This document shows positions 33,203 through 60,346 of a DNA stretch of 64,000 bases, piece after piece; within the stretch, counting starts at the first letter, position 1, and each line of letters starts with the position of its first letter. The notes beneath the pieces were generated by a model. It was not told the DNA's origin. It was given only the letters and a program-made list of their open reading frames with translations, and made no database searches. Source of the stretch: Promethearchaeota archaeon (lineage in GTDB: Archaea; Asgardarchaeota; Thorarchaeia; Thorarchaeales; Thorarchaeaceae); assembly GCA_014728035.1 (NCBI GenBank), contig WJMJ01000148.1, forward strand, positions 85,228 through 149,227. Direction: 5' to 3'. Position numbers and translations under genes: made by a program.

Positions 33203-33763
33203 TTATGGTTCCATCGATTCTCTTTCAGTAGGTGTCTTGAAAAGCTTTTCAACAACTAATCGTGCCATTTTTGCAAAAGCCTCATTGACATTCTTGTCTA
33301 ATCGAACGCTCATCTCAATGTACTCTCCATTGAACTTTTCTGCTACTTCCTTTCCCTCCTCAGTGGAAACAACACGTTCCATCACAAGATCTACCTTGTT
33401 TGCAACTAGGAGTGGTACATAATTATCAAGGTTCTTATCCACTTCAGCTTTCCAGTCAAGAATATCATTCAAACTTTCCCACTGAGTTACGTCAAAAAGG
33501 AACATTACACCTGAAGCGCCATTATAGTAATTTGCACGAACACGTTCTAGAAAATCTTGTGAGCCCATGTCCCATATCTGCAGGTTGACGTAGGTATCCT
33601 TGTCTAATCTAATCTTTTTGAAGGCAAAACCAGTACCAAGAGTTGGAGAGTAATGCTCCCTAAAAGCACCAGTAGAATAACGAACAATCATAGAAGTCTT
33701 CCCTACTGACGCGCTTCCTACGGTTACAATCTTCAATAAATAAGTCGGGCTCATTAATAACAC
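33203..33763 (-). CDS. Rab-like small GTPase with divergent G3/G5 motifs
   Basis: GSASVGKT, PTLG, WDMGSQ, NKVD, MSVR; no prenylation motif. Confidence 0.9.
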   Translation of the reverse strand: MLLMSPTYLLKIVTVGSASVGKTSMIVRYSTGAFREHYSPTLGTGFAFKKIRLDKDTYVNLQIWDMGSQDFLERVRANYYNGASGVMFLFDVTQWESLNDILDWKAEVDKNLDNYVPLLVANKVDLVMERVVSTEEGKEVAEKFNGEYIEMSVRLDKNVNEAFAKMARLVVEKLFKTPTERESMEP

Positions 33764-36634: not shown

Positions 36635-37195
36635 TTATTTCTTGCCAGGTAACTTTGGGTGAACGGGGGGATAAGTAGCATAGAGTGACCTAGCTATCCT
36701 TAGAAAAATGTCTTTAACATTAAAGCCTGTCTTTGCCGAAGTCTCATAGAATGGGAAGCCATGAGAATCAGCATAGTTTCTACCAATTGCGGGAATGACC
36801 TCACGTTGATGAGTCATGTCTGCTTTATTTCCAAGAACAATGCAAGGAAGAGTTCTCCCGTCAACAGTCTTGATACTCTCAGTTAGTCCTTCTAGCCAAT
36901 AAGGAATATTCTCAAATGATTCCATAGAGGTTATATCATACACAAGTATAGCGTAATGAGCACCTTTGTAATACTTCGTTCTGAGCTCGTCAAAAGATGC
37001 TTGACCACCTAAATCAATCACTGTGAGGATAACTGGAGTAAACGTATCAATATTCAAGGCAATAGCACTAAGGTCTACTCCAACCGTAGCAGTATAATCT
37101 TCATCAAATTCACCTAACAATAATTGACGAATTAACGAGCTCTTACCTACTGAAGCATCTCCAACAAGCAATACTTTGTATGCTGCAACCGCCAA
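36635..37195 (-). CDS. Rab-like small GTPase
   Basis: GDASVGKS, ATVGVD, DLGGQ, YYKGA, NKAD, ETSAK; probable TTG start at 37195 after a GGAG RBS. Confidence 0.92.
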   Translation of the reverse strand: MAVAAYKVLLVGDASVGKSSLIRQLLLGEFDEDYTATVGVDLSAIALNIDTFTPVILTVIDLGGQASFDELRTKYYKGAHYAILVYDITSMESFENIPYWLEGLTESIKTVDGRTLPCIVLGNKADMTHQREVIPAIGRNYADSHGFPFYETSAKTGFNVKDIFLRIARSLYATYPPVHPKLPGKK

Positions 37196-37369
37196 CGTGG
37201 TATCTCCTTGAGTATATCTAACTCTTATCGATAAATCCTTTACAAATGTGAATAATACAACACGTACAAATAAGGTCATTTCGTCTTCTTCTAAAAGATA
37301 TTAGCTCCATTCTTCTATAATGAACCGTGAGAAGGAAAAGACTATCTAGCTAAAACCGAGTTAGTAATT

Positions 37370-47669: not shown

Positions 47670-48746
47670 ATGATGATGAGTGAGATTGTTCTGAAATTCC
47701 AAAAAAAGGATAATACTGAGAGTGAACTTGTTTTTGAGCCAGATGATGATGTGTTTGATTTGTCAAAACAAGGTATCATCAGTATCGATTTGAGCCCTCT
47801 AAAAAATGCTGAAGCAATTAAGGAGCTTAATCTTGGAGCAAATAAAATTGAAGAAATAGACCTTAGTCCACTCACAGGTTTAGAAACCCTTGAGGTACTT
47901 AACCTGTTCAAGAATAAACTGGTTGAAATCAATCTCACTCCATTAGAAAGCTGTGTAAACCTGTTGGAACTAAATCTCGGTCAAAATGAAATCCAAGAAA
48001 TCGATCTGACTCCACTAGCTAGTTGTTCACAACTAACTAGACTCCGTTTATTCTCAAACCAAATCGAGTACATAGATATCACTGCTTTGGCTGATTGTGA
48101 AAAACTGGAAGCCTTAGAATTAGAGAATAATGGATTTTCAGAGATAGATTTACGACCACTTGCGGGTTGTCCAAATCTTGTTCAATTAAACCTCATGTAC
48201 AATGCGCTTGCTGAACTTGATCTCACTCACTTAAAGCGTTGCAAAGAACTGAAATTCCTTTATCTTCATCATAATACATTGACTTCGATAGATCTTACTC
48301 CCTTAGAAAATTGTACAAAATTGAAAATACTACGGCTTGGAAGCAACGAGCTAGAATCAATAGACCTTGGCCCACTTTCAAAATGTATCAGATTGCGGCG
48401 ACTTGGCCTTGCAATGAATCAATTAGAATTTATCAGTCTAGAACCTCTATCCACATGCACCCGATTACGCAGTTTGGACATTGCAGGAAATAGTATTGAT
48501 GAGATCGATTTAAGTCCCTTAGGAAAATGTGTTGAGCTGGAAGAGCTATATCTATTCAGTGATCATCCAGAAGAGAACACCTTCGATACAATTGATTTAA
48601 CACAGTTATTTAACTGTCCAGAATTAGAAGATTTAGGCCTGCCAATAGATGCTGAGCTGGTTGCAAAAGAATCTAAGAAACGACAAAAGGATAAGCCAAT
48701 AGCTCTCGAAGATTTGATTGAAGAGAGAAGAATAACTTGGATATAG
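47670..48746 (+). CDS. Leucine-rich repeat protein (22-aa repeats)
   Basis: About 12-13 repeats of IDLxPLxxCxxLxxLxLxxNxLxx. Confidence 0.92.
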   Translation: MMMSEIVLKFQKKDNTESELVFEPDDDVFDLSKQGIISIDLSPLKNAEAIKELNLGANKIEEIDLSPLTGLETLEVLNLFKNKLVEINLTPLESCVNLLELNLGQNEIQEIDLTPLASCSQLTRLRLFSNQIEYIDITALADCEKLEALELENNGFSEIDLRPLAGCPNLVQLNLMYNALAELDLTHLKRCKELKFLYLHHNTLTSIDLTPLENCTKLKILRLGSNELESIDLGPLSKCIRLRRLGLAMNQLEFISLEPLSTCTRLRSLDIAGNSIDEIDLSPLGKCVELEELYLFSDHPEENTFDTIDLTQLFNCPELEDLGLPIDAELVAKESKKRQKDKPIALEDLIEERRITWI

Positions 48747-48811: not shown

Positions 48812-49459
48812 ATGGTTATTGAGATAGAGGATGAGATGAAAGCTCAGATAATAGAGATGTTCGATGTCATTACTAATGATGTTACAATCCACGTTTTTCT
48901 TAAAGAACACGATTGTCTCTATTGCAATGATACACAAGCTCTTGCAGATCAAGTTGCTGAATTGTCCGAAAGAGTTCGAGTGAAAATCCATAAAGGTTCT
49001 GAAGGAGCGATTCTGATGGAAGAGTTGGGAGTCGAGATGCATCCAGCTATAGTCTTACATGGAAAAGAAAAATACAAAATCAGATTCTATGGTATTCCAG
49101 CAGGACACGAATTTAGTGCTTTTATTGCAGGTGTGGTTCTAGCTGGCACAGGTGTAGCACAACTACCACCAGGTATTATTGAGGATATTGAAGCGATTGA
49201 CGAACCTATTCATATCAGGGTCTTTACAACTCCTCAATGTCCTTACTGTCCAAATATGGTTCGGTTAGCTCATATGGCTGCTGTACTAAATCCACTAATC
49301 TCAGCAGATATGATCGAATCACTAGAATTTAGTAAGCTAGCTGAGAAGTATGAAGTTTTTGGAGTGCCAAAGACAATTATCAACGATACCGTTTCAATCG
49401 AAGGACTGGCACAACCAGATTTATTTGTTGAGAAATTATTTGATGCAATAGACCAATAA
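48812..49459 (+). CDS. Protein disulfide oxidoreductase (two thioredoxin folds)
   Basis: CLYC and CPYC motifs, GIPAGHEF, GVPKT. Confidence 0.9.
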   Translation: MVIEIEDEMKAQIIEMFDVITNDVTIHVFLKEHDCLYCNDTQALADQVAELSERVRVKIHKGSEGAILMEELGVEMHPAIVLHGKEKYKIRFYGIPAGHEFSAFIAGVVLAGTGVAQLPPGIIEDIEAIDEPIHIRVFTTPQCPYCPNMVRLAHMAAVLNPLISADMIESLEFSKLAEKYEVFGVPKTIINDTVSIEGLAQPDLFVEKLFDAIDQ

Positions 49460-51127: not shown

Positions 51128-54100
51128 ATGGGAAAGAGAGCTCTTGGAGATCGCAAAGCCGAAAATCTAATTGAGGTCGGTGTGGGATATTCCACGCTTA
51201 AAGATTCATATCAAGCAGGGTTAGCAGCTTCCAAAGATGCCTTATCTCAAATCATGGAGCACGAGGTTTCAGTTGTTATCCTGTTTACATCCTCACGATT
51301 CGACCTTGAAAAATTAGCTCAAGGAGTTAAAGAAGTAGCTGACGATGCTATTGTAATTGGTACCACTACAGCAGGTGAAATAGCAGACAGAAGATTAGAA
51401 AATTCAGTTGTGGTTGTAGTATTAGCATCTCCTTTTATCAGCGTTAATGTGGGAATTGGAACTAATGTTGCAAAAGATTGGAGAAGCGCAGTTGAAGATG
51501 TCATCAAATCATCAGATGTTGCCAAGTATTTTCAGAAAGACTATTCAATTTGGGCTAACTTGACTAGAAATGGGAAAAATGTATTTGGACTACTTTTTTC
51601 ACCTGGAGCTACTCTAAAGGCAGATTCCCAAAATTACCTCATTCTCCAAGAGTTGATTAGCAGATCTGAATCAAAGATACCTTTCTTCGGTGGAGCGTCA
51701 GCAGATGACTGGAAATTGGAAGAAAATCATGTAATCTTAAATGGGAAAGTATATCCGAATAGTATACTCTTGGCAGTATTTGAAACTAGCCTGTCATTTG
51801 GGATTGGAATGGCGCATGGTTACGAGGCTAGTGATGAAAAATTCAGGGTAACGAAAATAGAAGGACAAGAAATTCTTGAGATTGATAACAAACCCGCAGT
51901 TAAGGTGCTTTCTGAAATATTTGATTTTAAAATAGAAGAAATAGGAGGTATGCATTTAGGTTTCTTGACAACGGGAACCATCGGATACCAGAAAGATCAA
52001 GGTGACTATGTTCTCAATATCCCATCCAGAGTGACTAGTCGACAAGGAGTTATCTTGTCTCACGCTGTTCCACAAGGTATTGAATTAACCGTTATGAAAG
52101 CGACTAAGAAGCGTCTAGCTGAAGCTAGCAAAAATGCTCTTCGTCGCGCAAATCTGAGAGCGGGTATTTCAAAACCCGCTATATGTATTACATTTTCTTG
52201 TGCTCTTAGAGCTGCAATATTGGATGACGAAGCTGATAATGAGATACAATCCATGAAAGAAGCAGCACCGAAAACACCAATCGTAGGATTCTATTCTTTT
52301 GGAGAACAGACGATATCAAATGATGGAACCAACGAGCATTTCAACGAGATAATTTCGGTTCTTTCAATTGGAAACTCTCTTTCACCGAGTGCAGAAGTCG
52401 CATTAGAAAATAAACAACTATTAAGAGAATTAAAAATAACAGAAGAAGCACAAAGGGCTCTTCTGATTCAAATGCCTGATGCTGTAATTGCTACGGACGA
52501 GGATGGTGTCATTTCTCATTGGAATCCGAAAGCAGAAGAAATTCTTGGTTATAGTGAAGAATATTGTATTGGGAAAATACTTGAAGATGTTCTAAGTGAT
52601 AGTGCTCAGGAATTACTCAACCTGATAAAAACCGAGAATTGTGGGATTGGATATTCATCTGAGCTCTATATCCTAGCATCAAATGGCACAAAAATTCCTT
52701 TTCTCGTAACCGCATCACATAACAGAAATCAACCATATTTTACCGATGTTTATATTCTACATGACATTAGACACAGAATTGAAATGCGAAATGCGCTGCT
52801 TGATAGCGAAGAGAAGTATAGAAATCTAATTGAAAATTCACTTGAAGGTATTGCTATAGCTACTGATAATAAATTCCTCTTTGTTAACACAGCTTTTTCA
52901 AAACTGATGGGGCGATCAATAGATGAATTGCTATCTAAAAGAATGCCTGCTATTCTACATTTCATTCATCCAGAAGATGTAGAGAAATTGACAATCTTAA
53001 ACGATGTGTGGCAAAAAGAAAGAACTGTTCCGGATAGAGTAGAATTCAGAGTTATAACAGATACAGGAGAAACAAAATGGATTGAATGTTATCCTCAAAC
53101 GATAATGTACGATGATGTACCGGCAATTCAAATGCTCGCTCATGATATCACGATAAGAAAAAATGTGATGAATTCACTTGAGAAAGAAAGGACATTCTTT
53201 CAAACCCTAGCAGAAGTATCCGTCGAGGATGATGATATTCAAAGCATTTGCAGAAGGATACTTGAAACACTAATGAGAAACTATGATTTTCATTTAGGAG
53301 CTATTCAGCTATACGACGAGAAGAACAATTTGCTTGAGCTGGTGGCAGCTCAGGGAGTGAGTCCTTACAAAACATACAAACACATGAAAGTCGCTCCCAT
53401 TGAAGAAACGGGGTTCATTGCCTCCCATGTCGCATACTCGAAGGAACCCATTTACATCACAGATAGCATTCCGGAAGCTTGGCCAAAAATCGTTGAACAA
53501 CGTTTCAAAGAATTAAGAGTAAGAAGTTCTATGACCTATCCAATTTTGCGTTCCGATTCTTCGTTGATTGGTATTGTTAATTTTGCATCAAAAAAATCCT
53601 CATCATTTTCCAGTTATGACAAACAATTTTACCAAGCAGCAATTTCCATGCTCGGAACTGCAATAGAAAAAGCTGAAGCAAAACAAAAATTAGTTGAATC
53701 AAAAGAACTTTTTGAAAAGACATTCATATCACAGAGAGATTCGATATTAATCCTTTCGAAATCCAATCCACCAATTGTTGTCGACTGTAATCCGATGGCT
53801 AATGAAGTGTTTGGTTATCCAAGAAATGAGCTAATTGGGAGTGCAGTAGAAATTTTAGCTCCAGATGATTCTTCAGGAAATCGTCTGATCCATCAATTGA
53901 CTCATAATATTAAAAGACGAGGATTTATCCAAATTCCAGATTTTGTTTTGGAAAGCAAAACTGGAAAGAAATTGGATACTGAAATCACAGCGGTTCTACT
54001 TCAAAAAGATTCGGGAGGTGATATGGGATCAGTTGTAGTAATACGTGATATTACAAAAGAAAAGCAAGATGAACAAGCTCTAATAGAAAGTGAACAGCGA

Positions 54101-55075
54101 TACAAGACTGTACTTCAATCATTAAATGACCTTGTGTTTGTGTTTGACGAAGAAAACAGATATACACAGTTTTATTCAGCTAGCGGACATTTACTTGCTG
54201 TGTCTAAAGAAGAATTCATAGGAAAGCAAGTGGATGAAGTATTGGATAATGAATCGAGTAGAATATTGCTATCGACTCTTGACAGAGTTCGTGAAACAGG
54301 AGAAAATGGAAATATAGAATATGAATTGGAAATCAACGGGGAAGTGCGGTACTTCTCAGGTTCAGTGTCATTACAGGATGACGGAAAACACTGCACTTTG
54401 ATTGTCCGTGACGTGACCGAAAGGAAACTTGCTGAAAATGAGCTACTCACTTCATATCGGGATCTTGAATTATATACGTCTCTGTTACGTCATGACATAG
54501 CTAACGATTTGCAAATAATAATGGCACAATCTGGAATGCTCGAAAAAAACCTGGGAGATATCAATCGAGAACGAACAGAAGCAATTTTTGCTGCAGCAGA
54601 GAGAATGGGAAGAGTCTTGAGTGTTTTCGGAGCAAGCGAAAATGAACCTAAACAGACTCTATTAGCTATGATAGAAAAAATATCAGACCAAGCAAAACGT
54701 GCTCATCCTGGATTAATTGTTAATATCGAATGTACTAATCATGCCAAATCTATCAACCTAAGCATTGGAAGACTCATTCCTTTGGCTTTTGATAATCTTC
54801 TTAGAAATGCAGCTACATTTGCTGGAGAAAATCCAGTTGTTGATATCAAGATTAGGAAATCACAAAATACTATCATCATTGATTTCAAGGATAACGGAGA
54901 TGGGATTCCTACCCATATCCACGATAACCTATTTCAAAGGGGCACATCCACTACTGGTGGAGGATTAGGATTATACCTTACAAAAAGAGTCCTAGAAGGA
55001 CATGGAGCAAGTATTGAATTAATAAAAGACAAGCACAAAGGTACTCATTTTCGTGTGGTATTTCCAATCCAATAA
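51128..55075 (+). CDS. FIST-PAS-PAS-GAF-PAS-PAS histidine kinase
   Basis: GTTTAGEI, FFGGASAD, FSCALR, GFYSFGE (FIST); several PAS domains; LLRHDIAN H-box; DNGDG, GLGL. Confidence 0.9.
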   Translation: MGKRALGDRKAENLIEVGVGYSTLKDSYQAGLAASKDALSQIMEHEVSVVILFTSSRFDLEKLAQGVKEVADDAIVIGTTTAGEIADRRLENSVVVVVLASPFISVNVGIGTNVAKDWRSAVEDVIKSSDVAKYFQKDYSIWANLTRNGKNVFGLLFSPGATLKADSQNYLILQELISRSESKIPFFGGASADDWKLEENHVILNGKVYPNSILLAVFETSLSFGIGMAHGYEASDEKFRVTKIEGQEILEIDNKPAVKVLSEIFDFKIEEIGGMHLGFLTTGTIGYQKDQGDYVLNIPSRVTSRQGVILSHAVPQGIELTVMKATKKRLAEASKNALRRANLRAGISKPAICITFSCALRAAILDDEADNEIQSMKEAAPKTPIVGFYSFGEQTISNDGTNEHFNEIISVLSIGNSLSPSAEVALENKQLLRELKITEEAQRALLIQMPDAVIATDEDGVISHWNPKAEEILGYSEEYCIGKILEDVLSDSAQELLNLIKTENCGIGYSSELYILASNGTKIPFLVTASHNRNQPYFTDVYILHDIRHRIEMRNALLDSEEKYRNLIENSLEGIAIATDNKFLFVNTAFSKLMGRSIDELLSKRMPAILHFIHPEDVEKLTILNDVWQKERTVPDRVEFRVITDTGETKWIECYPQTIMYDDVPAIQMLAHDITIRKNVMNSLEKERTFFQTLAEVSVEDDDIQSICRRILETLMRNYDFHLGAIQLYDEKNNLLELVAAQGVSPYKTYKHMKVAPIEETGFIASHVAYSKEPIYITDSIPEAWPKIVEQRFKELRVRSSMTYPILRSDSSLIGIVNFASKKSSSFSSYDKQFYQAAISMLGTAIEKAEAKQKLVESKELFEKTFISQRDSILILSKSNPPIVVDCNPMANEVFGYPRNELIGSAVEILAPDDSSGNRLIHQLTHNIKRRGFIQIPDFVLESKTGKKLDTEITAVLLQKDSGGDMGSVVVIRDITKEKQDEQALIESEQRYKTVLQSLNDLVFVFDEENRYTQFYSASGHLLAVSKEEFIGKQVDEVLDNESSRILLSTLDRVRETGENGNIEYELEINGEVRYFSGSVSLQDDGKHCTLIVRDVTERKLAENELLTSYRDLELYTSLLRHDIANDLQIIMAQSGMLEKNLGDINRERTEAIFAAAERMGRVLSVFGASENEPKQTLLAMIEKISDQAKRAHPGLIVNIECTNHAKSINLSIGRLIPLAFDNLLRNAATFAGENPVVDIKIRKSQNTIIIDFKDNGDGIPTHIHDNLFQRGTSTTGGGLGLYLTKRVLEGHGASIELIKDKHKGTHFRVVFPIQ

Positions 55076-55152
55076 TTCCAATTTCTTGTCCTTTGTCAAC
55101 AGTCTTAAGCAATAACGATGTATTTGTGTTATTCATATTTAGAGGGATTGGA

Positions 55153-55629
55153 TTGAAAAAAGAAGATACGCTTGAATTCATTGATAAACAGATAGATCTA
55201 GAAGAAAACATAATTAATATCGTAAAGGAAAACACTTCCAAACTTGGAAATGCTTTCGTGAAAGATTTACTTCTAGGTATTGCGCAAGACTCGAAAAAAC
55301 ACGCGGCATTACTCAAGTCATTGAAGAAAGCAGTCGAAGGACCTACACCTTTCATCAGCACTGATGAACGAGACAAGATTGCCAAGGGAATCGAGAAACA
55401 TATCGAACTTGAATCACAAGCAATCGAGACCTACTCGGAACTTATTAAGAAGAGCGACAATGAGCAGGTTAAAACCATTGCTGCTATGATTCATGAAGAT
55501 GAGATTCGACACCATGCACTTTTGAAAGAATTGCACAAAACAATAATCGAGCCCGAAACTTTGACAGAAGACATGATTTGGGATATTTTGTGGAAAGACT
55601 CACCCTGGCATGGTAGTCCTGGCGGCTAA
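55153..55629 (+). CDS. Ferritin-like (rubrerythrin-type) di-iron protein
   Basis: Duplicated LE...DSKKH and LE...DEIRH; probable TTG start at 55153. Confidence 0.8.
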   Translation: MKKEDTLEFIDKQIDLEENIINIVKENTSKLGNAFVKDLLLGIAQDSKKHAALLKSLKKAVEGPTPFISTDERDKIAKGIEKHIELESQAIETYSELIKKSDNEQVKTIAAMIHEDEIRHHALLKELHKTIIEPETLTEDMIWDILWKDSPWHGSPGG

Positions 55630-55645
55630 TTCAAAACATGATAAC

Positions 55646-55680
55646 TGTGGGTTTTATCCCACACCAATTCTATTTTATTC
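55646..55680. terminator. Hairpin between convergent genes
   Basis: TGTGGG-ttttat-CCCACA. Confidence 0.5.
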
Positions 55681-56227
55681 CATACTCATCAACAAGATTC
55701 AGAAAGGTCGAGTCTAAGGTATCCATTCCTACTCCGGTTTTAGCGGAAATCAAATGGGTGGTCATTCCATATTCATTAGCAACTTCGATCATCTCATCAC
55801 CAATCTGGTCGATTTTATCTCCATCTATAAGATCAATTTTATTTCCTACCAAAATGAAGCGTTTTCCATCCCCACTATCGAAATTCAGATTGCTATTTTC
55901 ATTGACTGCTGGAATCCAATAAGTGAACAAATTATCAAATGTCTGCATTTTACTTACATCAAAGAAAAGGAGGCCAATTTTTGCACCACGTATCATTGTT
56001 TTCATCTGATCTGCAAATCGTTTTTGGCCACCAAAGTCCCATATTGATAGTGTGCATTCAGTACCACTGGGAAGCTCCACCTTCTTAGTATCAAAACTTG
56101 CACCGATTGTAGTGCGTAGCATATCTGGATCAGGAAAATTACCAGTTGTATAGCGTTGGGTAAAAGATGTCTTCCCGCACTCTGTATCACCCAACACTGC
56201 TACTTTTACAATCGCCATTTGATTCAA
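55670..56227 (-). CDS. Rab-like small GTPase
   Basis: GDTECGKT, TTIG, WDFGGQ, NKID, ISAKTG. Confidence 0.92.
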   Translation of the reverse strand: MNQMAIVKVAVLGDTECGKTSFTQRYTTGNFPDPDMLRTTIGASFDTKKVELPSGTECTLSIWDFGGQKRFADQMKTMIRGAKIGLLFFDVSKMQTFDNLFTYWIPAVNENSNLNFDSGDGKRFILVGNKIDLIDGDKIDQIGDEMIEVANEYGMTTHLISAKTGVGMDTLDSTFLNLVDEYGIK

Positions 56228-56230
56228 TCC

Positions 56231-57607
56231 TCACGAAGACTGTTGACTGGACGTTCCTCTTAGAGTAGATATAATTTTTGCAAATGGAGGGCTAACACCG
56301 ATTGCTGCCGCAGCTGCTACACCCAATAGGATTAACGCTAGTTCAAATTGAAAATCTTCTACGTACATTGCAGATAAAGCTGCTAATAGCGCAGAAATAA
56401 CAAAGAGAACAAATCTTGATGCTGCTCTTCCAGCTCCAATCTTATACAGTCTCCACGAAGTTCGAATGAAAAGAACTATAGACCATATCAAAAATGGACC
56501 TAGAAGAATCCAGAGATCTCCTGCAACCCATCTACCGTCTGCAACTTCAGGTATTGCTAGAATTGTTATGAATGTGCAAAATGAGATTATTATCTCCCTA
56601 GTAACTGAGTATCCCCTCTCACCAAGTGCAGTAGATGCTGCAGCTAAAGTGATTCCTGTTAGTCCGAAACAACCGAGAAGTACGTCAAACCAAATCATAT
56701 AGCGATTGAATACTTCATTTTGTGAGATATAGACAGCCCATGAAAGGGAATGAGTAAACAATAACAACGAAATGGAACCAAGAACAAGAGCAATATATTT
56801 TGGTACTCTTGCTTCAGTTCTAGTTAGTTCGCCGAGGAAAAAGTCCAATGGTGCTAAAATACACAATCCCGTTATGAGACATGCCAGTACAAAACTCCAG
56901 ATTACATAAGTTCCAAAACTCAGAGCAACTATAATCAATGGAATACATATTGTAAGTCCGGTTCCAAATAATAAAATGGTAATCATTGTTCTTGGGGGTT
57001 TCCTAATTGATCCAAATATTGCTGCTCCTACAATCAGCGGTGCGTTTACAAAGATGTAATATTCAGGATTACTCCAGACAAAACCTGTACTAGCAAGCCA
57101 CCATGTCATAATATACATCAACAGTAACAGAGTTAGTGAGCCGGTAAATATAGTGGGATTCTCTTTAAGCAGTGTCAGAGCAAAGAAGAATGTTGCAATT
57201 AAGAACAATGCGAGAATGGGAGCAAAAAGAATGAGAATGCTAGTACCAGTAAAAAGTCGTTGAATATTCTCAAAAATCACTGGAACGATCAGAAAAGCAG
57301 TTATGATAGTTCCATTTCTTGCACGATTGCCTTCTTGAAAGAGAATATTCATCTGAGCAATGAGAACAAATCCTAGGAATAACGCATTAAAACCAGTAAT
57401 GATGAAACGAAGTGGCTCCATCATTCCCGCAAGTACGGAGAGTGTCACAAATATTCCTGCGATTCCAAATGCGGTCAATGCTCTTTGTGTATAGATCGTA
57501 AGTGTACCGTAAATCTCTCTGATTCTTTTTACATATATCAAGAGAGAGAAAGAAATGATAATACTTACAACCAGTCCGCTAATATTCATAGCAAGTGTGT
57601 AATCCAT
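56231..57607 (-). CDS. About 15-TM membrane protein (copy B), putative double-7TM receptor
   Basis: 15 hydrophobic segments counted by eye; paralogue of 58291-59661. Confidence 0.75.
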   Translation of the reverse strand: MDYTLAMNISGLVVSIIISFSLLIYVKRIREIYGTLTIYTQRALTAFGIAGIFVTLSVLAGMMEPLRFIITGFNALFLGFVLIAQMNILFQEGNRARNGTIITAFLIVPVIFENIQRLFTGTSILILFAPILALFLIATFFFALTLLKENPTIFTGSLTLLLLMYIMTWWLASTGFVWSNPEYYIFVNAPLIVGAAIFGSIRKPPRTMITILLFGTGLTICIPLIIVALSFGTYVIWSFVLACLITGLCILAPLDFFLGELTRTEARVPKYIALVLGSISLLLFTHSLSWAVYISQNEVFNRYMIWFDVLLGCFGLTGITLAAASTALGERGYSVTREIIISFCTFITILAIPEVADGRWVAGDLWILLGPFLIWSIVLFIRTSWRLYKIGAGRAASRFVLFVISALLAALSAMYVEDFQFELALILLGVAAAAAIGVSPPFAKIISTLRGTSSQQSS

Positions 57608-57613
57608 TTTGTA

Positions 57614-57991
57614 TCAACCCCATAAATCAGATATTTCGCGTCCGCGTTTATCAGCGACTTTTTGAATTCGTTTTGCAATCTCTTCTTTCGATGCTTCCGG
57701 TTTATTTGTAATGGAGGTCAAACTGTCAGCCACTTCATTCTCATTATCAGCTTCAGCTATGTAGACATAATCCCCCAAGGTGACATATCCGACAACACCA
57801 CGATCCGATTTCATAAAATGGTGTTTACCTTCCGAAAGACTTGCTGGGTCATCACGTTCAAGAGCTGCAGAAACGAGCTGTACAATACCCATCAACAAAG
57901 CAACTCGTTCATCCTTTTGCTCATCAATGGGATATAATACTTGAGAGCTCATATCGTCCAATTTTACTTTTGCTACCAGTCTGATGACCAT
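57614..57991 (-). CDS. Longin-fold protein (copy B)
   Basis: Beta-beta-alpha-beta-beta-beta-alpha-alpha pattern; C-terminus KRGREISDLWG. Confidence 0.65.
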   Translation of the reverse strand: MVIRLVAKVKLDDMSSQVLYPIDEQKDERVALLMGIVQLVSAALERDDPASLSEGKHHFMKSDRGVVGYVTLGDYVYIAEADNENEVADSLTSITNKPEASKEEIAKRIQKVADKRGREISDLWG

Positions 57992-58284
57992 TAGTCACCA
58001 CCCCCAAAAGCATCAGTTAACCAATCAAGCTCTTTAGACCCAGTTCGCTTCTTGGGTTCTTCTTTCTTTTTCATTGGAACAACAACGTCTCGAACCCCGA
58101 GACCTTTACCTCCACGTTGGTTATAGAGGGTGACCAGCAGTTCATGCCCATTTTCGCAATTTGCTATCATAGTTGGTGAGCGACCCTCATCCTTAATTCT
58201 CTGTTTAATAGATTCAGCTTCTTCATCTGAAAGTTTGATGGTAGTCTGACCTTGACACTCTGGACATTTGAATGTGATATCCAT
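57991..58284 (-). CDS. Small zinc-binding protein (copy B)
   Basis: FKCPEC...CENGH; C-terminus ELDWLTDAFG. Confidence 0.75.
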   Translation of the reverse strand: MDITFKCPECQGQTTIKLSDEEAESIKQRIKDEGRSPTMIANCENGHELLVTLYNQRGGKGLGVRDVVVPMKKKEEPKKRTGSKELDWLTDAFGGGD

Positions 58285-58290
58285 GATTTA

Positions 58291-59661
58291 TCAGCTCCCT
58301 TCCTTTTGTGATGATGTGCGTCTTGAAATAAACCGAATAACGGGTGGACTATTTGCCAATGATAGAATGACTGAAAATGCTAATAGTGCTAAGACAATTC
58401 CAAATGGAAAATTATCTGAAAACATAGAAACAATTCCAACTGCCAATGCAGATGTTATGAATAAGATAAATCTGAAAGCAGCTGTACCTGCCCCAAGTCG
58501 TGCTATTCGAATGGATGTTCTGATGAATAACAACATTCCAGCAGCAATTCCGAATCCAATAAAGAGCCATAGTACTTCTTGTTCATAGCGACCACCAATT
58601 ACATCAGGAAATGCAAAACATACAATAGCAGATCCATATATGTTTAGGAATTCCCTTGAGTAGGAATATGCTGTATTTCCAAAGTTCATCACTACACCAG
58701 CAAGAACGAAAGCTCCAACTGCAAACATTCCCAACACTACATCAAACCACACAAAATATTGATTCCATGCACCTTCGGATTGGTAGATAGAAAATGATAA
58801 TGCGTGAGTCATAATCATTAGAGAAAGTGCGCCAATGACTAATGCAATATATCGAGGTGCTTTCGTTCCCGTTTCTTGTGCTTGCTGAATGAAATAGTTT
58901 AGAGGGATGATCATCGCTAAACCTGATAGTATTGCAGCTTGCGAATAGAGTGTAATGATGGTTTCACCGGACTGGAACGAAACTATGACTAGTGATGAAC
59001 CAATTGTGAATGCAGTGAGGATTAGAAAAATCGTTAACATTGTTCTAACTGGTTTTCTTATAGATGCAAATATTGAAGCTCCCAGCAACAATGGTAAAGC
59101 ATTGATTATGAAAAATTCGGGATTGACGAACAACCATCCAGATGCTGACACTAGCCATGCAACAACAAAGACCAATTCTAGAACTAGAAAAGAAACCGAG
59201 AATACTGTCGGATTTTCACGAACAAGTACAATCGAAGATATAATTCCCCCACCAAGGAAAAACAGTAAAGTCACCATTAGAATTCCAATTGTGGGAGGTA
59301 AAACAAACCTGAGGTAAGCACTGATAGCAACCGATGATGCCATTAGTAGTATAATGATAATTTTGAGATAATTAGCTAATTTCTTATTTGGATAAAGAAT
59401 ATTGATCTGAGTAAGAAATAGCAATCCAAGAAAGATGGCGCTATTACCCATTACCAGATGAGTCATCGTAGAGTGAACAGCAAAGAATGGTACAAAAGCC
59501 ATGGAGATTCCTGCAGCACCATATGTCATCAGAGCTCGACGTGTATTGGGAGTGATTTCTGTGATGATTTCTCTAATGTTTCTCCCGTAAATTACAATAG
59601 AAAACAATGTTGCCGCAAAGGTTACCAATCCTGAAATAAAGATAGTCTGTGAAAAATCCAT
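58291..59661 (-). CDS. About 15-TM membrane protein (copy A), putative double-7TM receptor
   Basis: Shares IREI, ENPT, NPE, SIRKPxRTM, YIALV, THxLS, WFDV, FIRTS, SPP with copy B. Confidence 0.75.
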   Translation of the reverse strand: MDFSQTIFISGLVTFAATLFSIVIYGRNIREIITEITPNTRRALMTYGAAGISMAFVPFFAVHSTMTHLVMGNSAIFLGLLFLTQINILYPNKKLANYLKIIIILLMASSVAISAYLRFVLPPTIGILMVTLLFFLGGGIISSIVLVRENPTVFSVSFLVLELVFVVAWLVSASGWLFVNPEFFIINALPLLLGASIFASIRKPVRTMLTIFLILTAFTIGSSLVIVSFQSGETIITLYSQAAILSGLAMIIPLNYFIQQAQETGTKAPRYIALVIGALSLMIMTHALSFSIYQSEGAWNQYFVWFDVVLGMFAVGAFVLAGVVMNFGNTAYSYSREFLNIYGSAIVCFAFPDVIGGRYEQEVLWLFIGFGIAAGMLLFIRTSIRIARLGAGTAAFRFILFITSALAVGIVSMFSDNFPFGIVLALLAFSVILSLANSPPVIRFISRRTSSQKEGS

Positions 59662-59671
59662 TATTACACCT

Positions 59672-60049
59672 CTAACCCCATAAATCTGAAATTTCCCTGC
59701 CTCTTTTGCTTGCTACTTTCTCGATTCGTGTTGTCAATTCTTCAGTAGAAGCATCTGGTTCTTTTGCTACAGAACGAACACATTCACCAGCTTCATTTTC
59801 ATTATCAGCTTCACAAATGAAAAGTGTACCACCAACCTGAGAATATGATATGACGCCTCGATCGCTTTTCATAAAATGTGGCTGATCTGAAGGTATCTCC
59901 TGAATATCATCTCTTTCAAGTGCTGCTGAAACCAATTGTACAATTCCAGTAAGAAGCGCAATACGTTCAGCTTTTTCTTCACCTACTGGATAAAGTACTG
60001 TCGAAGACATATCATCAAGAGCTACTTTTACAACTAAACGAATTACCAA
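59672..60049 (-). CDS. Longin-fold protein (copy A)
   Basis: Paralogue of 57614-57991; GAGGAGG RBS and TTG start. Confidence 0.65.
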   Translation of the reverse strand: MVIRLVVKVALDDMSSTVLYPVGEEKAERIALLTGIVQLVSAALERDDIQEIPSDQPHFMKSDRGVISYSQVGGTLFICEADNENEAGECVRSVAKEPDASTEELTTRIEKVASKRGREISDLWG

Positions 60050-60061
60050 GCTTTATCCTCC

Positions 60062-60346
60062 TCATCCAAAAGCGTCTGTGAGCCAGTCTAGCTCACTTGA
60101 ACCTGTTTTCGATTCCTTTTTCTTTTCTTTCTGCATTGGTACGACAACATCTCGTACCCCGAGACCTTTACCTCCACGTTGATTGTATAAGGTAACGAGT
60201 AATTCATGATTGTTCTCACACCTAACAATCATCGTGGGACTACGACCTTCTTTAGAGATTCTCTCCTTAACCTCAGCAGCCTCTTCATCGGTCATTTCTA
60301 TAAGAGCTGAACCGTCACAGGCTGGACATTTGAATACTAGTTTCAT
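60062..60346 (-). CDS. Small zinc-binding protein (copy A)
   Basis: FKCPAC...CENNH; paralogue of 57991-58284. Confidence 0.75.
   Translation of the reverse strand: MKLVFKCPACDGSALIEMTDEEAAEVKERISKEGRSPTMIVRCENNHELLVTLYNQRGGKGLGVRDVVVPMQKEKKKESKTGSSELDWLTDAFG

Follow-up and report, generated by a model that had tools for sequence, protein, structure and literature searches.

A Thorarchaeota family of membrane proteins predicted to join two seven-helix bundles, encoded with zinc-ribbon, longin and Rab-like GTPase genes

The DNA examined here, called the window in what follows, is a stretch of 64,000 nucleotides of contig WJMJ01000148.1 (positions 85,228 to 149,227 of the forward strand) from a Promethearchaeota archaeon of the Thorarchaeaceae (assembly GCA_014728035.1). 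Its interval 56231-59661 holds two genes for paralogous proteins with 15 transmembrane (TM) helices, plus two small genes between them, and the 15-TM proteins make up a new, unannotated and narrowly distributed family. Our reading, to which we give a probability of roughly 0.58, is that the 15-TM protein is a pseudo-dimeric 7TM receptor, or at least a dedicated membrane dock, and the membrane component of a Thorarchaeota-specific module of zinc-ribbon protein, longin protein, 15-TM protein and Rab-like GTPase that couples a membrane event to the GTPase. The topology and fold of the protein, the range of its family, the conservation of the gene cassette and the pattern of conserved residues are shown below by prediction and comparison.

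The 15-TM protein adjoining the GTPase gene, P0001 (458 residues; 56231-57607, minus strand), was analysed as a translation and as an AlphaFold2 model, and its upstream paralogue, P0002 (456 residues; 58291-59661, minus strand), as a translation; the two are 36% identical over their full length. A preliminary description of this DNA, made from the letters alone, had given both open reading frames (ORFs) at these positions, and they are confirmed. It had counted 15 hydrophobic segments in each paralogue and read them, by the positive-inside rule, as N-out/C-in (N-terminus outside, C-terminus in the cytoplasm), that is, as 7 + 1 + 7 helices with both halves oriented like a G-protein-coupled receptor (GPCR). 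Every motif it quoted can be found in the sequences, both in the basic loops (KRIREI/RNIREI, GNRAR/PNKK, KENPT/RENPT, SIRKPxRTM, TxxRxPK/TxxKxPR, FIRTSxR..GAGxAAxRF) and within helices 10 and 11 (THxLS, WFDV). The helix count is borne out by a family-averaged hydropathy profile of 28 relatives, which has 15 hydrophobic segments, and by the AlphaFold2 model of P0001, built on a 28-sequence alignment, which contains 15 long TM helices followed by a short helix at residues 440-451 (mean predicted local distance difference test score, pLDDT, 89.9; predicted template modelling score, pTM, 0.87). Across 63 relatives, the loops after odd-numbered helices together with the C-terminal tail carry on average 19.5 Lys and Arg residues, versus 2.7 in the other loops and the N-terminus, and in no protein does the ratio fall below 4. 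Under the positive-inside rule such a bias places the N-terminus outside and the C-terminus in the cytoplasm, and together with the predicted fold it supports the 7 + 1 + 7 arrangement with both halves in GPCR orientation.

On P0001 (all positions on the minus strand) the first bundle, TM1-7, takes up residues 1-204 (56996-57607) and has its N-terminus outside, while the second, TM9-15, takes up residues 232-438 (56294-56914). The model helix between them, TM8 (residues 205-231; 56915-56995), returns the chain to the outside; we regard it as a linker because it is part of neither set of structural alignments to 7TM proteins. It is preceded by a conserved cytoplasmic motif, P204-W205-R206 (consensus residues, P0001 itself having Pro at 205). 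After TM15 the model has a cytoplasmic amphipathic helix (residues 440-451; 56255-56290) in the position of GPCR helix 8, with the invariant P440 directly ahead of it, and the structural alignments of the C-terminal half reach residue 454. The protein ends about 20 residues past TM15 with no soluble domain, and all full-length relatives have 438-482 residues. This ending and the Pfam and NCBIfam scans given below agree with the statement of the preliminary description that neither a transporter signature nor a soluble output domain is present.

The predicted structure supports the reading as a pair of 7TM units. In an exhaustive VIA structural search of 48,161 representative solved chains, the best 50 rows were all 7TM chains with the GPCR fold: 49 were domains of natural GPCRs and one was a designed soluble protein of GPCR-like fold. 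These matches cover both halves of P0001. In the ESM Atlas of predicted structures the matches are to bacterial seven-helix modules: for residues 7-204 the membrane-embedded N-terminal part of sensor histidine kinases, and for residues 232-440 DUF6962 (TM-score 0.72 by the row). In other rows a GGDEF, GAF, HisKA or AraC domain is fused to the 7TM module, and a PAQR/TrhA (HlyIII) cluster appears for residues 233-440 with a TM-score of 0.64. Each half thus resembles GPCR-fold chains and bacterial 7TM modules, the latter with TM-scores of 0.6-0.74, a likeness for which the preliminary description had proposed to look. A language-model search gave, as a lead only, a cluster with HisKA_7TM in 10% of its members (score 0.86). 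Foldseek against the Protein Data Bank (PDB) returned no match at an E of 0.001 or below with either predicted model, so that the clear structural matches are those of the VIA search and the Atlas. A repeat between the halves, also suggested at the outset, did not appear at the sequence level: profile-profile comparison of TM1-7 with TM9-15 by hhalign found no in-register repeat (probability about 3%, the best local match being out of register, and 0.2% for a reversed control). That the halves are structurally alike is supported only indirectly, by the GPCR-fold matches to both of them.

Each half shows the seven-helix bundle, the helix arrangement and the N-out/C-in orientation of the GPCR superfamily. 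None of the GPCR families of Pfam (7tm_1, 7tm_2, 7tm_3, Frizzled and others) matched P0001, P0002 or 28 aligned relatives at E values up to 1, and the DRY, NPxxY and CWxP motifs were not found on reading the 15-TM sequences. Since the halves fail these sequence-based tests of membership despite their fold and orientation, homology to eukaryotic GPCRs is left open; the caution of the preliminary description, that GPCR-like topology does not imply homology, holds with the topology upheld and membership by sequence profile not found. Rhodopsins were considered and rejected because neither seventh helix carries the retinal-binding Lys; any Lys at all is seen in TM7 of one of 63 sequences and in TM15 of one of 63.

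A profile search through the complete set of 1.84 billion representative proteins gave 68 matches to the family, either full-length or fragments, with no single-bundle or domain-fused relatives among them. A word-indexed homologue search with P0001 retrieved only P0001 itself and one protein 75% identical to it. Pfam and NCBIfam scans of P0001 and P0002, extended for Pfam to the 28 aligned relatives at E values up to 1, gave no match. The family is nearly confined to one Thorarchaeota family: among 301 genomes sampled across the phylum, it is present in 38 of the 76 from the window's own family, while the sister family yielded one genome with a weak match (E 5e-8) and the 224 other genomes one marginal match. 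The source genome holds a third 15-TM copy on another contig (C25).

Within the family, the cytoplasmic face is the most strongly conserved (Mann-Whitney test of information content, p = 0.001). Forty positions are conserved in at least 75% of sequences, 24 of them in cytoplasmic loops or in the third of a helix that adjoins the cytoplasm, and 11 on the outer side; examples are L44, the SPSPF loop, PWR 204-206, F257..Q260..P269, G391..F399..F402 and S-S-P 438-440. Two polar residues stand out inside the membrane. Of 56 core relatives, 49 have His at position 286 in TM10 (codon at 56750-56752, minus strand), where a distant branch of the family has Asp, Glu or Asn, and position 308 in TM11, Asp in P0001 (codon at 56684-56686, minus strand), is Asp or Glu in 50 of the 56 and Asp, Asn or Glu in the distant branch. 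With the N-out/C-in topology, the two positions fall on the second and third helices of the second bundle, in its outer half. The preliminary description had taken the polar residues of helices 10 and 11 as conserved, which holds for His286 and the acidic residue at 308, whereas the other residues of THxLS and WFDV (T, L, S, W, F, V) are kept only between the two paralogues.

The gene neighbourhood associates the 15-TM proteins with a fixed set of soluble partners. Seven genes are tightly packed on the minus strand at 55670-60346, with gaps of 3-12 bases or a one-base overlap, in the order zinc ribbon (P0006, 94 residues; 60062-60346), longin (P0005, 125 residues; 59672-60049), P0002, zinc ribbon (P0004, 97 residues; 57991-58284), longin (P0003, 125 residues; 57614-57991), P0001 and small GTPase (P0007; 55670-56227, the likely true start being the ATG at 56218). 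The order of zinc ribbon, 125-residue longin, one or two 15-TM genes and GTPase is constant in 16 loci from 16 genomes, with exceptions only at contig ends. Some loci hold two complete cassettes, and the four genes recur in unchanged order in the distant branch, whose 15-TM protein reaches only 82 bits with the profile. Many relatives have two adjacent 15-TM genes per cassette (L014:5201-7969 and L016:6290-9046, for example). In such loci the GTPase-proximal copies form one clade (7 of 8; support 100/99), which suggests that the adjacent pair arose by an old duplication, has kept its order since, and may possibly work as a hetero-pair or heterodimer. The two copies in the window belong to another clade, whose 15-TM genes each come with their own zinc-ribbon and longin genes. 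We found no description of the cassette in the literature on Asgard GTPase, longin/roadblock, 7TM and GPCR proteins and on GPCR-like operons of archaea; a 2026 preprint names, without detail, '7TM proteins' of Asgard archaea and a cluster called 'a class C GPCR' among Asgard-eukaryote structural clusters, which may include the 15-TM family.

The GTPase P0007 matches Pfam Ras (2e-27) and has intact G1-G5 motifs (GKT, T40, WDFGGQ, NKxD, SAK) with the catalytic Gln present. Among solved sequences it is nearest to Ypt7/Rab7, Rab28 and the Thorarchaeota Rab 7ezb, and its C-terminus has no Cys, so that the prenylation cysteines are absent. Such a Thorarchaeota Rab without prenylation cysteines has been reported, with GTPase-activating proteins (GAPs) or guanine nucleotide exchange factors (GEFs) probably needed (Tran et al., PMC10933270). 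P0003 and P0005, 64% identical to each other, show the element order b-b-a-b-b-b-a-a (b, strand; a, helix) and a structural match to longin domains; the longin protein had no match in Pfam and NCBIfam scans, and a sequence-profile search of the PDB with the longin alignment gave nothing meaningful. P0004 carries CPxC...C-x3-H and EGRSPT and matches Pfam Zn_ribbon_Brz (7.4e-07; 30.1 bits against a cut-off of 27.9), while the Brz match of P0006, 69% identical to P0004, is below the cut-off. The Pfam family is named after a transcriptional regulator (Brz). Because one zinc-ribbon copy (57991-58284) passes this cut-off, the protein might be a DNA-binding output held at the membrane.

Both small proteins end in an aromatic peptide, DW[LVI]xxxFG(G) in the zinc ribbons (ELDWLTDAFGG in P0004) and [DS]LW[GR] in the longins (...EISDLWG in P0003). 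Because these C-terminal peptides are kept even in the distant branch (L032:3311-3996, L034:145-828), they are candidate docking tails. A four-chain complex prediction of the cassette proteins, with the 15-TM protein as partner, scored 0.56, versus 0.46 with the GTPase replaced and 0.34 with one unrelated partner, which gives no verdict and counts neither for nor against binding.

In the predicted structure two seven-helix bundles of GPCR arrangement and orientation are joined in one chain by TM8, which resets the orientation between them. From here on, for partner binding, for sensing, for the way the signal runs and for its downstream target, we infer the following scheme as the most likely. 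The 15-TM protein would sense a stimulus in the membrane or outside the cell, one candidate site being His286 and Asp/Glu308, the conserved pair in the second bundle's outer half, and its strongly conserved cytoplasmic face would dock the soluble partners. The longin protein would act as a GEF or GAP platform for the Rab-like GTPase. Through the module, an event at the membrane could thus be coupled to the nucleotide state of the anchor-less GTPase, or to its recruitment to the membrane, with the 15-TM protein supplying the membrane attachment and the input that the GTPase otherwise lacks. A more specific version, which we advance tentatively and think unlikely as it stands, is archaeal 7TM-to-GTPase signalling in which the double GPCR-fold receptor and the longin protein control nucleotide exchange on the Rab-like GTPase, the invariant C-terminal peptides docking into the cytoplasmic cavities of both bundles as the G-alpha C-terminal helix does in an active GPCR. 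If true, receptor-to-G-protein coupling, and the recruitment of Rab-like GTPases to membranes by a receptor, would exist in the archaeal lineage nearest to eukaryotes, through convergence or through a descent shared with GPCRs.

The 15-TM protein might instead be a passive membrane dock or an effector and not a sensor. As a dock it would tether the anchor-less GTPase/longin pair to the cell membrane, a situation comparable to membrane-anchored SR-beta bound by the SRX longin domain of SR-alpha; as an effector it would be a target switched by the GTPase, for instance in lipid scrambling or ion leak. We think it doubtful, with perhaps a modest chance of being right. A simple anchor has no need for two complete seven-helix bundles. 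Also against this reading, a buried pair of a His and an acidic residue is conserved in the outer half of the second bundle, and in predicted structure each half comes closest to input modules from signalling proteins of bacteria.

The same pair of residues, one conserved His and one conserved acidic residue within the membrane, is what recommends an intramembrane enzyme or lipid handler, either a hydrolase of the PAQR, alkaline-ceramidase or TMEM8 (CREST) type or an opsin-like scramblase, with His286 and Asp308 catalytic or metal-binding. The PAQR/TrhA cluster in the Atlas list and the presence of Myomaker (TMEM8c) among weak Foldseek rows go in the same direction. However, only this one His and one acidic residue are conserved, in place of the several-His metal motif of PAQR and CREST proteins, and His286 gives way to Asp, Glu or Asn in the distant branch. 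As far as is known, PAQR proteins have their N-terminus inside, opposite to the N-out 15-TM protein. No HlyIII Pfam match was found in 28 members, and the top solved matches are all GPCR-fold chains and not hydrolases, all of which makes an enzyme improbable. A secondary transporter or antiporter-like protein of 14-15 helices is in our view barely credible, even though the size and helix count are like those of many transporters and one Atlas row is Proton_antipo_M (TM-score 0.48 by the query, 0.23 by the row). The preliminary description had set its reading against a prediction of 12-14 helices with an MFS, APC or MATE fold; we find 15 helices, and the MFS, MATE and POT rows of Foldseek have TM-scores of at most 0.2 and root-mean-square deviations above 19 Å. 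No transporter is found among the best 50 rows of the exhaustive VIA search, no transporter family of Pfam or NCBIfam matched, and inverted-repeat transporters are not built in this way, with an odd helix count of 7 + 1 + 7 made up of two parallel bundles. The transporter reading was rejected for its fold and its number of helices.

The genes flanking the cassette, for a FIST-PAS-GAF histidine kinase, a rubrerythrin-like protein and a 2-oxoacid:ferredoxin oxidoreductase, are unrelated to it and not conserved. The kinase (1315 residues; 51128-55075, plus strand) has FIST_N/FIST_C, several PAS, GAF and HATPase_c domains and converges on the GTPase end of the cassette, followed by the rubrerythrin/ferritin-like ORF at 55093-55629; in two distant-branch loci, the only relatives whose flanks were read, neither adjoins the cassette. 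Elsewhere in the window lie two more small GTPases on the minus strand (33203-33763 and 36635-37279), 29-31% identical to the cassette GTPase, and, on the plus strand, a leucine-rich-repeat protein of 358 residues (LRR_4, LRR_8; 47670-48746) followed by a thioredoxin-domain protein (48812-49459). The source assembly measures 4.33 Mb, with 97.9% completeness and 8.5% contamination. A same-genus genome of about 3.2 Mb holds only an orthologue (C1:650157-651563) of the third, single-cassette copy of the source assembly. Given this contamination, the lack of the window's copies in the same-genus genome, and a nearest P0001 relative elsewhere that is 75% identical, the contig could come from a second Thorarchaeote in the bin.

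Rab, Ras and Arf-like GTPases are numerous in Asgard archaea, as are longin/roadblock proteins, and how those GTPases without lipid anchors reach membranes, and what their inputs are, is an open question (PMC10933270). The cassette offers a defined, directly testable candidate of four proteins, with a dedicated polytopic membrane partner of receptor-like fold, and the 15-TM proteins add an unannotated membrane protein family with an unusual 7 + 1 + 7 build.

Among known systems, eukaryotic GPCRs share the predicted fold of the halves, with examples in the adhesion group and in classes A, B and C (ADGRL3 8jmt, GPR156 8ieb, ADGRF1 7wu3/8g2y). The 15-TM protein, in contrast, has two bundles per chain, and its partners would be a monomeric Rab-like GTPase and a longin regulator instead of a heterotrimeric G protein. 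Prokaryotic 7TM sensor modules (7TMR-DISM_7TM, HisKA_7TM, DUF6962 and the unnamed 7TM N-termini of GGDEF, HisKA and AraC proteins) are like the halves in predicted fold, within the TM-score range given above, and share a prokaryotic signalling context; the Pfam families 7TMR-DISM_7TM, HisKA_7TM and DUF6962 had no match in 28 members. These modules consist of a single bundle with a fused cytoplasmic output, whereas the 15-TM protein fuses two bundles and has no output domain, its output presumably lying in separate genes. Tandem rhodopsins (bestrhodopsin, 7pl9) and LYCHOS/GPR155 (8u5n) also combine a 7TM bundle with another multi-helix unit in one chain, and appear as weak Foldseek rows (TM-score 0.17-0.26), but the 15-TM protein has neither the retinal Lys in TM7 or TM15 nor a bestrophin or PIN-like transporter domain. 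The signal of LYCHOS goes to the Rag GTPases and to GATOR1, a complex that contains longin domains.

Taken as a whole, the cassette is most like the actinobacterial G protein system, or conservon, typified by CvnA-D and the mfp operon and proposed as a prokaryotic analogue of GPCR signalling (PMC13621833, PMC13343842, PMC11343762); the conservon GTPase belongs to the MglA group (PMC4316618). In the cassette, too, a protein of the roadblock/longin superfamily and a Ras-like GTPase are encoded in one operon with a membrane protein, and both systems consist of four genes, for a membrane sensor or membrane protein, a roadblock/longin-superfamily regulator, a small accessory protein and a Ras-like GTPase. 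Their parts differ. The membrane part of the conservon is a histidine-kinase-like protein, while that of the cassette is a double 7TM protein without an ATPase; the conservon accessory is DUF742, reported as a GEF, while that of the cassette is a zinc ribbon, and HATPase, HisKA and DUF742 had no match in the cassette proteins. The GTPases are MglA-group and Rab-like, and the lineages Actinomycetota and Thorarchaeota, respectively. The cassette would then be an archaeal counterpart of the actinobacterial G protein systems in which a 7TM protein replaces the histidine kinase and, judged by this analogy, a prokaryotic small-GTPase signalling module that follows the same logic as the conservon with different parts.

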